Shown: in pieces, positions 9,443 through 18,901 of the stretch
How positions within the stretch are numbered: position 1 is the first letter of the stretch
How the letters are laid out: each line of letters opens with the position of its first letter
NCBI GenBank assembly: GCA_964607485.1
Contig: CAZSKP010000009.1
Location: 14,045 to 78,044 of the forward strand
Source of the DNA: an uncultured bacterium
GTDB taxonomy: Bacteria; Abyssobacteria; SURF-5
DNA: 64,000 bases
Direction: 5' to 3'
The notes under the pieces: model-generated
Database searches by the model: none
Told to the model about the DNA's origin: nothing
Seen by the model: the letters and a program-made list of their open reading frames with translations, nothing else
Program-made: the position numbers and the translations under genes

Positions 9443-9605
9443 CTTCCTAGGCTCAGATTAGTCGAATGCCGGTATCCAACTAATCTAACACAAAGCCAGA
9501 GCTTTTTCAAACGGTTTCGCGGGGAGGGCAGAGATTCAGAAAAGGCCCGCAGACACAAATTGAACCGCAAAGCCGCAAAGGGCGCAAAGATAGATGCACC
9601 GTGGC

Positions 9606-12179
9606 CTAATTGCTGCGACGGGGTGCGGCGGGTTTGCGGCGTGGGTGGCGGAATGAGGCGAAGAAGCGCTGGAATTCGTCGAAGACCTCGTCGGAGCCGC
9701 CGCGAACGATGCGGCACGCCGGCAGCGAATTGAGGAACGTGCGCCCGTACGATTTCTCGACGACGCGCTTGTCGAGGATCAGAACGGCGCCGTGGTCGGT
9801 GCGGTTGCGGATGAGGCGGCCGAAGCCCTGCTTAAACTTGATGGCGGCCAGCGGGACGGCGTATTCGGTGAACGAGTTGCCGCCGCGCCGCTCGATGTCC
9901 TCGGCGCGCGCCTGCGTGACCGGCTCGTCGGGCACCTTGAACGGCAGCTTCACGAGCACGACGCATTCGAGCGATTCGCCCTCCACATCGACTCCTTCCC
10001 AGAAGCTGAGCGTCGCGAACAGCACCGACGTGGTATCGCGCCGGAACCGTTCGAGCAGCGCCGTCCGGTTGTCGTCGCCCTGACGCAACGCATTGACGCC
10101 CATCAGTTTCTGCAAACTCGGCGCGAGCTCGTCATACACCGAGTCGAGCATGCGAAACGCCGTGAACAGCAGGAAGGCGCGTCCCTGGCTGATGGTCAGG
10201 CATCGGAATATCGACTGAACGAGCGCTTCCCGATACTTCGGGTCCTTGACGACGGGGACATCTGTCGGGATTCCTATTATCGCCTGCTCGGCGAAATCGA
10301 ACGGCGACGGAAGCGCGATGAACTCCGTGCGGTCGGCATCGACCTTGTCCAGCCCGATGCGGCCCGCGACAAAATCGAACCGGCCCTCGACGGTCAGCGT
10401 CGCGGAGGTGAGCACAATCGTGGGGAAATGCGAGTAAATCTGCTCGGCGAGCACCGTCCCCACGTCGAGCGGGACCGAATAGAGCCTCACCACCGACGTT
10501 CTCTTTCCGCCGCGAGCTTCTATCCACCTGATGCGGTCGGGGTCGTCGCCGAAAAGCGCGTCCTCGATGTTCGACGCGGCGACGTCGAGCCTGTTGCAGA
10601 TGGCTCGAAGCTCGATGCGCTCGTCTATGAAATCCAGCTCGCCGCCCGTGTCGCGCTTGAGACCGTCCAGCCTTTTGAGCACGAGATTGATCCGCGAGAT
10701 GAGATTGCGCAGTTCGGTAAGAAGCTTCTCCACCGGCGGCAGACAATCCTCACGCCAACGGTCGTCTTCCTGCAGTTGCGGTCCGACGCGCATCTTGATT
10801 TCGCCCTTCGCTCCCCGAGACTGTGCCGATGTTAACTCGTAAATGGCGTCGAACGCCTCCGCCAGCCTGTGCTCCAGTTCGCTCTTCAGCGGGATTATCT
10901 CGTCCTGAATGTCCAGGAGGATTTCGTCTATTTTCTCGCTCACGCCCGGTGCGCGCATGAGCTTCGCCCTGAGAACCGTCACCAGCCCGCCCTCCCGCCT
11001 TCTCGGCTGGCGGTGGTGGATGCGTCCGAGCAGCCGCAGTAGGCCGATGCGCGTGACCCTCGCTCCGAAATATGAGGTCGCCGAATCCTCGACGTTGTGA
11101 GCCTCGTCGAGTATCACGCGACGATAGCCGGGCAGAATGGCCATGTCGGAATAACTCTGCGTCGCGCTCCTCAGGGCGAGGTCGGCGAAGAGGAGATGAT
11201 GATTCACCACGAGCAGGTCGGCCGAGGCGGCTTCGCGGCGCGCCTTGTTCACGAAGCAGTCGGCAAAGCGGGCGCATCGCGCGCGCGGGCACGTGTCGCT
11301 CTCGGCGTTCACCTTGTCCCATATCTCTGGCTTCGGGACGAAGTTGAGGTCCGACCGGCTGCCGTCGCGCGTCTGCTTCGCCCATTCCATAATAGAGCGC
11401 AGCACGTCGCACTCCTCGGGCGTCGTCAGCAGGTCGAACTCGCGCTCGAGCATGGCCAGCTTGCGCAGGCAGACGTAATTGCCCCGGCCCTTGACCAGCA
11501 CGGCCTTGCATTCGGCCCCGAGCGCGGACAGAAGCGTCGGAATGTCTTTTTTGATGAGCTGCTCCTGCAGGTTGATGGTGTTCGTCGAGACGACGACGCG
11601 CTCCTTGTTTGTCACGGCCCACGAGATTGCGGGGATGAGGTACGCGAACGTTTTCCCCGTGCCCGTGCCGGCCTCGATCGCGACGATGCCGTCTTCGTTG
11701 AACGCGCGCGCCACAGCGCGCATCATCTCGACCTGCTGTTCCCTGTGCTCGTATTTCTTCAGCTTGCGCGCGATAGGCCCGCGGGGCATGAGAACTTTAG
11801 AAAGCTTCTCAGCGTCGAGCGGCTCAAGCTTCTCGCGCCCGAATGCGGCGACGACCTCATACACGCGCGTGACGGAATTATTGATGATGTAGAAACCCAC
11901 GCCCGCCTGCCCGACGCCGCTGGCAATGGAGATGTCGGCCGACGACGGGTCGAGCGGCCCGGAGGGATGGTTGTGGATGACGACGTCGCCCGGCCGCGCA
12001 AGCTGCGTTATCGCGGGCACCGCCCCCTCGTTCCCGTGGGCCAGAGGGACGGCCTTCGTGACGACGCGCTCGTCATCGGTGCTGCCGAGAAAGAAGACCT
12101 CGTTGCCGCCCGAGGCTTCGATCTCGGTGCGCACGGCCTCGATGACAGCGGGTGCGAACAGCTTCTTTGCGGATTTCAT
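9606..12179 (-). CDS. dinG: DinG/Rad3-family ATP-dependent DNA helicase with N-terminal RadC-like JAB domain
   Basis: ATG at 12179 (ORF track start is TTG 12185). N-terminal region has VVIHNHPSGPLDPSSADISIA (RadC-like JAB HNHPSG motif); helicase core has Walker A EAGTGTGKTFAYLIPA and VLDEAHN (DEAH-type). Confidence 0.8.
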   Translation of the reverse strand: MKSAKKLFAPAVIEAVRTEIEASGGNEVFFLGSTDDERVVTKAVPLAHGNEGAVPAITQLARPGDVVIHNHPSGPLDPSSADISIASGVGQAGVGFYIINNSVTRVYEVVAAFGREKLEPLDAEKLSKVLMPRGPIARKLKKYEHREQQVEMMRAVARAFNEDGIVAIEAGTGTGKTFAYLIPAISWAVTNKERVVVSTNTINLQEQLIKKDIPTLLSALGAECKAVLVKGRGNYVCLRKLAMLEREFDLLTTPEECDVLRSIMEWAKQTRDGSRSDLNFVPKPEIWDKVNAESDTCPRARCARFADCFVNKARREAASADLLVVNHHLLFADLALRSATQSYSDMAILPGYRRVILDEAHNVEDSATSYFGARVTRIGLLRLLGRIHHRQPRRREGGLVTVLRAKLMRAPGVSEKIDEILLDIQDEIIPLKSELEHRLAEAFDAIYELTSAQSRGAKGEIKMRVGPQLQEDDRWREDCLPPVEKLLTELRNLISRINLVLKRLDGLKRDTGGELDFIDERIELRAICNRLDVAASNIEDALFGDDPDRIRWIEARGGKRTSVVRLYSVPLDVGTVLAEQIYSHFPTIVLTSATLTVEGRFDFVAGRIGLDKVDADRTEFIALPSPFDFAEQAIIGIPTDVPVVKDPKYREALVQSIFRCLTISQGRAFLLFTAFRMLDSVYDELAPSLQKLMGVNALRQGDDNRTALLERFRRDTTSVLFATLSFWEGVDVEGESLECVVLVKLPFKVPDEPVTQARAEDIERRGGNSFTEYAVPLAAIKFKQGFGRLIRNRTDHGAVLILDKRVVEKSYGRTFLNSLPACRIVRGGSDEVFDEFQRFFASFRHPRRKPAAPRRSN

Positions 12180-12216
12180 ACACAACCATTATACCTGCGA
12201 AGGCACGAAGAAATAC

Positions 12217-12263
12217 AGAAAGAAAAGGGGGAAAAAGGAAGGAGGGAAAAGGGGAAAAGGAAA
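12217..12263. repeat. 47-nt uninterrupted purine (A/G) tract in the pgeF-dinG intergenic region
   Basis: Plus strand 12217-12263 is only A and G (agaaagaaaagggggaaaaaggaaggagggaaaaggggaaaaggaaa); lies just upstream of the dinG start on the coding strand. Confidence 0.6.
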
Positions 12264-16522: not shown

Positions 16523-17437
16523 CTATAGAGTCCTATCCGAGGGAAGACGTTTCAGCCTCTTTGGTTCTTCCGGAGAATACTTTAGCCTTCGGCGTCGCAC
16601 ATCGTCTATTCTCCATCCCATCATAAATATCTCATGACTCCCTATCTTATCGACTTTCTTGAGTTTTATCTCTTGGCCTGGGAAGAAGGCACCACAGCTC
16701 ACCTCCTGCGGGGAACAGGAGTTATCGTTTACGCAGACCACTAAGGAATTGGTCTTGCTCGAAAGGCGTAAGCAAGATCCAAGTGCTTGTGAGAATTTGT
16801 TTGTATAGCACGGAACTAGGATAACTTCAATGTCCGCCTTGTTCAAACTCGTAGAGTTCAATACCTCAAACTTATATTCAGCATTACGGTCGGCCACATC
16901 TAGGCAAATCAAGACGCTAATTACTCCAAATTCTGTGTTAATAAGTAGAAATTTCGGTTTGCCTTTTGGAACTTTACATTCTTCGCCGGCCACTTGGGCC
17001 AGATTATATTTGTATTGCTGAAATGGTCTATTCCTATATGGCGTGTATATCAGCGAAGTATTAAAGAAGGTTCTTGGATCATAATATGAACCGGCAACAA
17101 TATGTGACCCAAATCTGCCTGCAAAATTTGCCAACTTGCTTTCCAGTCCACGTGCTCCGTACGGATAAGATAGTTCGCTGAAACAAATAAGATTTGCTCC
17201 TTTTCTTGCCGCACTTTGTGCACATTGCAGAAAATTCTTCGAGAAGCTTTTTAGCTTTGTCTCTTTGAGAACGAAGATGGTGTCATCTCTATCTGCTTTG
17301 GAAACAAAACAATCCTCGGGAATATGCATTGACACTAATGCAATTTTTATCTCTGGACGACTGACGAACGAAAGAGTCTTTGTTAGAGATAGAGTGTCCT
17401 CCTGAATAGTGACATTTTCCTTGCTGGGATTCGACAA
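16523..17437 (-). CDS. Nitrilase-superfamily (carbon-nitrogen hydrolase-like) protein; island gene C
   Basis: 304 aa in low-GC DNA; candidate E-K-C triad context: GANLICFSELSYP (Glu), YKYNL (Lys), VISVLICLDVADRN (Cys). First in-frame start is TTG at 17437; start uncertain. Confidence 0.5.
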   Translation of the reverse strand: MSNPSKENVTIQEDTLSLTKTLSFVSRPEIKIALVSMHIPEDCFVSKADRDDTIFVLKETKLKSFSKNFLQCAQSAARKGANLICFSELSYPYGARGLESKLANFAGRFGSHIVAGSYYDPRTFFNTSLIYTPYRNRPFQQYKYNLAQVAGEECKVPKGKPKFLLINTEFGVISVLICLDVADRNAEYKFEVLNSTSLNKADIEVILVPCYTNKFSQALGSCLRLSSKTNSLVVCVNDNSCSPQEVSCGAFFPGQEIKLKKVDKIGSHEIFMMGWRIDDVRRRRLKYSPEEPKRLKRLPSDRTL

Positions 17438-18013: not shown

Positions 18014-18901
18014 TCAGTTGTCCGAACCGATCATGCGTGCAAAAGCTTTACTCACTCTCGCAGGTCCCGCGTCTCTAACAGTCAAAGGAGGGGTCTGGCG
18101 CTGGTCATAACAGATGCCAACATGGCTGTCAAATGTGCCATTTCCATTCGTGCTTGACTCTAAAACTATCCCTTCTGTGTCTTCACCCGCCAGACCAGCC
18201 CATTCAGCGTTTGTTGCTTCAAGATATTCTTGAATTTCTGGCCAGCTTGAGCACCTCCAACCCTGCCAGAAAATCATTGTTTCTGCAACATTGCGCATCT
18301 CCTTATCTGTCTTAATCATTGCTCTGAAATCTATCTCCTCGCCAGCGAGCAAACTGCTCACGCATCCTGCAAATTCAGGATCCATCGAAGCAACAAATTT
18401 GAGACTGATCTTCTTTCCTTTAGAAACTTCCTCGTAAAATCCTTCCTCAACCAATATTTTCCGATAGCTATTATAAACAATATCATCAAGGCCGGAGATA
18501 TATTCGGAACAGGTTGAAAAGAAATTGTGAATCTCTTGTGCATCCAAATTTCCGTTTGAAGACTGGATCAGAGAACATCTGGACCATATTTTACTTTTGT
18601 TTGGTGGAACACAAATCGTAATGGATGGCCTGTACTCGAGCAGAAAACCATTGGACCTAAATTGGAGACCGCCGAAAACCAATCCAGGCCCTTCCCGCGA
18701 CTCATTCTCTGGTTCTAGACTCTTTTCATTCGTGATACGCGTCAAGCAATTCTTGATCTCTTTATGGAGAGATATCCATTTGCGGCTCATTGCATTCCTT
18801 ACTGCAGTAGCCTTCCCATATTCACTGCTGCAGAATCCACGCGGTTTCACAACCAAGCATGACCTGATCAAAGGGAATCTGTATTGCTTGTCAGCGTACA
18901 A
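18014..18901 (-). CDS. Hypothetical protein; island gene A
   Basis: 295 aa ORF in low-GC DNA, no motif recognised; first in-frame start TTG at 18901, possible later ATG (MSRKWISLH). Confidence 0.4.
   Translation of the reverse strand: MYADKQYRFPLIRSCLVVKPRGFCSSEYGKATAVRNAMSRKWISLHKEIKNCLTRITNEKSLEPENESREGPGLVFGGLQFRSNGFLLEYRPSITICVPPNKSKIWSRCSLIQSSNGNLDAQEIHNFFSTCSEYISGLDDIVYNSYRKILVEEGFYEEVSKGKKISLKFVASMDPEFAGCVSSLLAGEEIDFRAMIKTDKEMRNVAETMIFWQGWRCSSWPEIQEYLEATNAEWAGLAGEDTEGIVLESSTNGNGTFDSHVGICYDQRQTPPLTVRDAGPARVSKAFARMIGSDN

Follow-up and report, generated by a model that had tools for sequence, protein, structure and literature searches.

A RadC-type JAB domain joined to a DinG/YoaA-like helicase in an uncultured bacterium, a typical member of the RadC-like DinG family

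Does a single gene in the 64,000-nucleotide stretch of DNA analyzed here (the window) join a RadC-type JAB domain to a DinG-family helicase? If so, is this an unusual protein, and what reaction might its JAB domain carry out? The gene in question lies in a long open reading frame on the minus strand, listed as 9606-12185, with an alternative TTG start at 12185 that adds two amino acids. The ATG at 12179 is the start at which the N-termini of homologues align. An earlier note, made from the letters of the window, had placed a RadC-like JAB domain and a DinG/Rad3 helicase core in this one frame; its coordinates correspond to the ATG-initiated frame of 857 amino acids, and the peptide that it quoted, VVIHNHPSGPLDPSSADISIA, comprises residues 66-86. 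The presence of both parts in one frame is confirmed by domain scans, structure matches and homologues. The features of the gene are collected in Table 1.

Table 1. Features of the RadC-like DinG gene, with positions given in the coordinates of the window
Feature	Residues	Position (nt)	Strand	Evidence or remarks
RadC-like DinG gene, complete	857 aa	9606-12179	-	ATG at 12179; full-length AF2 model
RadC-type JAB/MPN+ domain, N-terminal	1-118 (end approximate)	11826-12179	-	PF04002, 2qlc, Foldseek
JAMM motif segment VVIHNHPSGPLDPSSADISIA	66-86	11922-11984	-	Zn ligands H69, H71, D82; plus S79
General base, upstream of the JAMM segment	E27	12099-12101	-	
DinG/YoaA-like SF2 helicase body	128-826	9702-11798	-	NCBIfam YoaA, PDB, Foldseek
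Walker A, GTGKT	173-177	11649-11663	-	Motif search and 48-sequence alignment
Fe-S cluster domain	C237, C297, C302, C308	11256-11471	-	Conservation in 150 representatives
DEAH box	358-361	11097-11108	-	Motif search and 48-sequence alignment
Arch-type insertion, variable, mostly helical	approx. 385-580	10440-11027	-	Conservation, model
Helicase_C_2, motor domain 2	658-820	9720-10208	-	PF13307, 5e-45

We have examined the N-terminal domain by profile and structure comparison. When the N-terminal 125 amino acids were scanned in isolation they matched the Pfam RadC family PF04002 with 25.9 bits (E = 1e-5), passing the gathering cut-off of 22.1 bits. In the scan of the full-length protein the same family scored 21.1 bits, slightly under the cut-off, and the match covered aa 66-93 only. 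Every one of the 44 relatives sampled matched PF04002, and ten of them matched Prok-JAB also. The profile of a 44-sequence family alignment was compared with the PDB, giving the RadC crystal structure 2qlc as the best match (E = 6e-8), with AfJAMM marginal. We modelled the domain with AlphaFold2 (pLDDT 87), and a Foldseek search with this model retrieved the JAB/MPN fold; the best-scoring PDB matches are all JAB/MPN proteins, namely CSN5, RadC 2qlc, Rpn11 and AF2198. Translation of the 64 kb window in all six frames gives a motif of the type H-x-H-P...S-x-x-D only once, and the window contains no second copy of RadC or DinG.

The canonical JAMM arrangement E...HxHx7Sx2D is complete in this domain, being formed by E27, H69, H71, S79 and D82, and these residues are unchanged across nine close homologues. 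Among 150 cluster representatives, 143 of which have the JAB domain, E27 is present in 140, H69 and H71 in 143 each, and S79 and D82 in 142 each; about 98% of the relatives examined have all five intact. For the JAB domain as a whole the conservation per 20 aa is 0.28-0.66, compared with ~0.5-0.75 in the best-conserved blocks of the motor domains. As judged from these alignments the zinc-hydrolase centre (E27, H69, H71, S79, D82) is under strong purifying selection. Near-invariance of these residues throughout the family makes an active zinc hydrolase the most likely identity of the JAB domain.

The JAB domains of the family are acidic throughout, with a median net charge of -6 and a pI of 4.9, and 98% of them are net negative. 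Only two basic positions are conserved, and at position 48, where Arg or Lys is usual in the family, this protein has His. An acidic domain with so few conserved basic positions shows no indication of a DNA-binding surface of its own, and this hints, weakly, that the JAB domain may not bind DNA by itself. With the helicase available to hold DNA, the acidic character is compatible with a nuclease and with a peptidase alike.

The remainder of the protein is a DinG/XPD helicase. Pfam finds Helicase_C_2 (5e-45) and DEAD (5e-10), and the best NCBIfam model is YoaA, with 596.5 bits and model positions 2-620 aligned on aa 128-826. Two DinG models scored 503 and 417 bits in the same scan; the Bacillus-type ExoDinG model (PRK08074, 503 bits) ranks next after YoaA, followed by E. 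coli DinG. The closest sequences in the PDB are E. coli DinG (6fwr, 4.5e-45) and S. aureus ExoDinG (8zef, 1e-44). Foldseek with the full-length model also places E. coli DinG 6fwr first (3e-43), then S. aureus DinG, XPD and CasDinG. In a 48-sequence alignment T172, G173, G175 and K176 of the Walker A region are invariant, as are D358, E359 and H361 of the DEAH box, while A360 and the C-terminal F839 are each conserved in at least 90% of the sequences. The Fe-S cysteines are found in 141 (C237), 133 (C297), 150 (C302) and 150 (C308) of the 150 representatives. The least conserved part is the Arch-type insertion, at 0.17-0.37 per 20-aa block, for which the model has long helices at 414-543. The body is thus an XPD/DinG-type iron-sulfur SF2 helicase, nearest to YoaA and DinG, with its ATPase motifs intact.

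The AF2 model of the complete protein has a pLDDT of 92 and a pTM of 0.88. In this model motor domain 2 is followed by a C-terminal helix at aa 829-844 and then by a disordered basic tail (pLDDT <50 for aa 847-857). The pTM value suggests that the JAB domain and the helicase may be held in a fixed arrangement.

How widespread is the fusion? We searched 1.84 billion cluster representatives (50%-identity clusters) by HMMER with aa 1-801 as the query, finding 19,395 relatives. Reading the presence of the JAB domain from the aligned ranges of the query, it is found in 143 of the best 150 of these, at identities of 35-49%. The seven exceptions comprise five to six that appear to be JAB-less and one gene call that is clearly truncated. 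A scan of species-representative genomes (one per species) gave at least 316 candidate stretches with a coding sequence related to the JAB domain. In the best 80 of these loci the JAB domain and helicase lie in one frame without exception (80/80); in 70 of the 80 a single in-frame HSP spans both parts. The hosts of these best 80 include Geobacter, Geomonas and Geotalea (Geobacteraceae), Desulfuromonadales, Acidobacteria, Acidimicrobiia, Candidatus Poribacteria, KSB1, Calditrichota and Sumerlaeota. Identity over the full length reaches 72-75% in the nearest relatives among the 80 loci retrieved, which come from uncultured bacteria and one metagenome-assembled genome labelled Candidatus Poribacteria; a lookup of the exact protein sequence gave no record. 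When the N-terminal 149 aa served as the query of a word-indexed search for homologues, just eight fragmentary matches came back; these would wrongly imply rarity, and the scan of species-representative genomes corrected that. The sequences compared indicate that the fusion is the usual form among the relatives of this protein, so that the suggestion of an unusual JAB-DinG architecture in the earlier note does not hold.

That suggestion is also countered by the literature, in which the architecture is already known and published (PMC3239186, PMC11981726). Iyer and colleagues described RadC-type JAB domains fused to DinG/RAD3 helicases in several phyla, close to versions with a 3'-5' exonuclease, and proposed that the JAB may be a nuclease on the grounds of non-homologous domain displacement of that exonuclease (Iyer et al., 2011, NAR, PMC3239186). 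The idea of a different processing activity, raised again in the earlier note, had therefore been drawn there. The nuclease argument was restated in 2017 (Iyer et al., 2017, PMC5512222). A review in Comput Struct Biotechnol J in 2025 distinguishes ten subgroups of DinG, among them 'RadC-like DinG' (PMC11981726), and in the literature that we searched the term was not found beyond that review. E. coli radC mutants have normal sensitivity to DNA damage, according to Attaiech (2008) as cited in the review (PMC11981726).

When set beside the published RadC-like DinG proteins, the present one differs in nothing substantive. It has the N-terminal RadC-like JAB domain with an E/H/H/D centre, the YoaA-like four-domain Fe-S helicase made up of two motor domains, Arch and Fe-S domains, and the C-terminal helix after motor domain 2. 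Its identity is 45-49%, both to the cluster representatives that rank highest and to the Geobacter and Geotalea orthologues. The copy has its origin in another, uncultured lineage, and carries His at 48 and a basic C-terminal tail that is not conserved.

Comparison with more distant systems locates the protein further. E. coli YoaA is a DinG-family Fe-S helicase whose partner is HolC. YoaA is the best curated family for the helicase body, and shares with it the Fe-S cluster and the C-terminal helix; however YoaA has no JAB domain, and the 596.5 bits of our protein fall below the equivalog cut-off of 680 (NF053712). No HolC is reported in organisms with RadC-like DinG (PMC11981726). The ExoDinG proteins of Bacillus and Staphylococcus (PDB 8zef/9ii8) have a homologous helicase body (503 bits to PRK08074, 1e-44 to 8zef, 4e-32 in Foldseek) and likewise an extra catalytic domain at the N-terminus, but that domain is an exonuclease of RNase H fold, whereas the one found here has a JAB/deaminase-like fold. 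Pfam gave no match to a DnaQ-family exonuclease, and TIGR01407 and PRK08074 align from model positions 240-249 onward, below their cut-offs.

The JAB domain belongs to the same clade as RadC/YicR (PF04002, TIGR00608; 2qlc), with the HNHPSG...PS..D signature, although the helix-hairpin-helix domain at the N-terminus of RadC is absent from our protein. The full-length RadC models TIGR00608 and PRK00024 give 20.7 and 16.4 bits where their cut-offs are 180 and 133.85, respectively, and by sequence they align to the motif region only (aa 54-93). The JAMM/MPN+ isopeptidases Rpn11, CSN5, AfJAMM and PfJAMM1 share with the domain its fold and its E...HxHx7Sx2D zinc site. Their identity to it is only 11-19%, however; the JAB domain here is minimal, at about 118 aa, and its gene neighborhood is without ubiquitin-like substrate or partner genes.

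The genomic context was surveyed for evidence of function. On the same strand lie genes for an EF-G paralogue, a NUDIX protein, an isochorismatase-family protein, a small Zn-ribbon-like ORF, a PgeF/YfiH-like protein, HslU, dCMP deaminase and SHMT, with Sua5 and a CtpA-like peptidase farther out. This is a housekeeping neighborhood. None of the neighbor genes of the window flank the orthologues in the 80 loci compared. Across the same 80 loci there is no family-wide conserved neighbor; the largest cluster of neighbors occurs in 21, which we take to be clade-specific synteny. No ubiquitin-like protein and no E1/E2-like genes were found among the annotated neighbors, no CRISPR-like repeat array in nt 1-30000, and no Rfam element in the window. 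In the 170-nt segment that surrounds the start and extends upstream of it there is no promoter-like site and no inverted repeat or LexA-like palindrome. SOS regulation was rejected because of the lack of an inverted repeat in that segment. With neither a LexA-like palindrome nor a conserved neighbor, a role in DNA damage is without contextual support at this locus.

Taking these results together, the protein very probably belongs, as an ordinary orthologue encoded on the chromosome, to the published RadC-like DinG subgroup, in which an intact Fe-S helicase and a JAB domain of the zinc-hydrolase type would act in replication-associated repair. By analogy with DinG, YoaA and XPD, the helicase would load on single-stranded DNA and translocate in the 5' to 3' direction. 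The JAB domain would take the place of the DnaQ-type exonuclease of the related ExoDinG proteins, and may act as a putative Zn-dependent hydrolase on whatever the helicase exposes or meets in the course of such repair. Since the alignment of PRK08074 begins only at model position 249 and at aa 136 of our protein, and ExoDinG is among the best matches, the JAB domain is positionally equivalent to the exonuclease, and it is on this equivalence that the published proposal of a nuclease is based. To our knowledge, all JAB domains of known chemistry are (iso)peptidases. The nuclease proposal is weakened by this, and by the structural matches, which are to peptidases and RadC only. What bond, then, would the JAB domain cut? 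As a rough apportionment, a nucleic-acid-processing, nuclease-like reaction is the first candidate, with rather less than an even chance; cleavage of an amide bond in a protein or peptide adduct on DNA comes next as a serious contender, and some other bond would be the least expected, though still credible. It is conceivable, if on balance doubtful, that the JAB domain of RadC-like DinG has a biochemically new activity, as the first JAB-fold nuclease or as a helicase-coupled protease for DNA-crosslinked proteins.

Other explanations have to be weighed against that of an ordinary RadC-like DinG. The JAB domain could be a metallopeptidase that cleaves a protein or peptide held covalently on the DNA, such as a crosslink or a trapped enzyme, when it is met by the translocating helicase; the fusion would then be the counterpart, in one polypeptide, of helicase-assisted crosslink proteolysis. 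We regard this as a tentative possibility. The centre is of the JAMM peptidase type, complete including the oxyanion serine and near-invariant, and the acidic surface of the domain speaks against direct binding of DNA, to which it would be targeted by the helicase. Yet no ubiquitin-like, E1/E2 or other protein-substrate partner is encoded nearby and no neighbor is conserved; RadC-type JAB domains are said to lack the groove for the ubiquitin tail (Iyer et al., PMC5512222); the N-terminal additions described for other DinG helicases are nucleases (PMC11981726); and our literature search found no paper tying RadC to crosslink repair. It is improbable that the JAB domain is catalytically inert, serving the helicase only as a DNA-binding, regulatory or oligomerization module, because this protein, like about 98% of the relatives examined, retains all five catalytic residues, and an acidic domain is ill-suited to be a DNA-binding module. 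MPN- domains are nevertheless common scaffolds. Moreover, the zinc ligands have been lost in some fusobacterial versions of JAB-DinG (Iyer et al., PMC3239186).

Two further readings concern the identity of the gene itself. The protein gives 457 bits over aa 136-826 to the PADLOC model 'typeIV_DinG; CAS-IV-A associated', as might a CRISPR type IV CasDinG (Csf4) or another anti-phage defence helicase. That match is explained by generic DinG homology. With the NCBIfam equivalog for Csf4 the protein reaches only 107 of the 400 bits set as the cut-off. It also keeps the Fe-S cysteines, while CRISPR-associated DinG-like proteins are among those that have lost the cluster (PMC11981726). With the score below the cut-off, no array in nt 1-30000 and housekeeping neighbors, we have rejected a CRISPR or defence identity, which is now very unlikely. 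More improbable still is an artefact, with two genes joined by an assembly error or a frameshift, or with a motif that matches by chance. The sole support for this is the sub-threshold score of Pfam RadC on the full-length protein (21.1 against 22.1 bits). It is refuted by the continuous open reading frame in 80/80 independent genome loci and by 143 protein clusters, in addition to the confident single-chain model and the profile and fold matches to JAB.

The conclusion that emerges is that the locus is a typical member of a described and widespread family, and 'RadC-like DinG helicase', with no claim to novelty, is the label that the gene should carry in annotation. The family itself is a widespread and strongly conserved fusion of a helicase with a putative hydrolase, and it provides the main contextual argument in the debate on the substrates of RadC-type JAB domains, nucleic acids or proteins. 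The window adds no lever beyond the published family. Orthologues are carried by cultured species of Geobacter, Geomonas and Geotalea, which offer a better experimental entry than the copy of an uncultured lineage. A new JAB activity, nuclease or protease, would, if true, settle the long-standing question of the function of RadC-type JAB domains.

We have examined the N-terminal JAB domain of the RadC-like DinG helicase protein at a position that is basic in most of the family. Residue 48 (nucleotides 12036-12038) is histidine in this protein, where 80% of family members carry arginine or lysine, within an ARGN motif. Besides this site, the JAB domain of the family has just one other conserved basic position.

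Among the best cluster representatives from the HMMER search, five proteins (P0106, P0134, P0146, P0154 and P0157) are close relatives in the helicase body, with lengths of about 730-750 amino acids, that lack the JAB domain. In each the protein start falls just ahead of the helicase, and they are either secondary losses of the domain or the result of mis-called starts. A further representative, P0090, has its start within the final strand of the JAB domain and appears to be a truncated gene call.

The helicase gene is preceded by an intergenic region of 106 nt, which contains a polypurine tract (see table) that is read on the helicase coding strand as a pyrimidine-rich leader. A TATAAT sequence lies only 8 nt upstream of the ATG, and no obvious Shine-Dalgarno sequence was found in this intergenic region.

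Immediately 3′ of the helicase gene lies a Zn-ribbon-like ORF, with an inverted repeat and a promoter-like site upstream of it. Searches of Pfam and PADLOC gave no match to this ORF in either, and in the neighborhood comparison it was absent beside the RadC-like DinG orthologues.

Features of the window.
Feature	Position	Strand	Description
EF-G-like GTPase, 684 aa	5748-7802	-	all five EF-G domains present
Zn-ribbon-like ORF, 119 aa	9083-9442	-	two CxxC pairs, acidic tail
Inverted repeat	9455-9486		16 nt
Promoter-like site	9510-9482		
Polypurine tract	12207-12254	+	48 nt; two imperfect 24-nt units, GAAGAAATACAGAAAGAAAAGGGG and GAAAAAGGAAGGAGGGAAAAGGGG
Low-GC segment	16001-20000		GC content 0.45-0.50
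Low-GC ORF 1	16523-17437		weak CN_hydrolase match only
Low-GC ORF 2	18014-18901		no Pfam match
FtsX + Peptidase_M23 ORF, 677 aa	23060-25093	-	domains in a single ORF

The EF-G-like GTPase probably represents a paralogue of EF-G rather than canonical fusA. Its context is not that of a ribosomal operon, its neighbors being NUDIX and LysE-type exporter genes. Elsewhere in the window, a single ORF encodes the FtsX extracellular and permease domains (amino acids 57-284) and a C-terminal Peptidase_M23 domain (568-662), and looks like a fusion of FtsX with an M23/LytM-type domain; a CtpA-like S41 peptidase adjoins it. Lastly, the GC content of the low-GC segment compares with about 0.58-0.63 in the rest of the window, and this segment may have been acquired horizontally.
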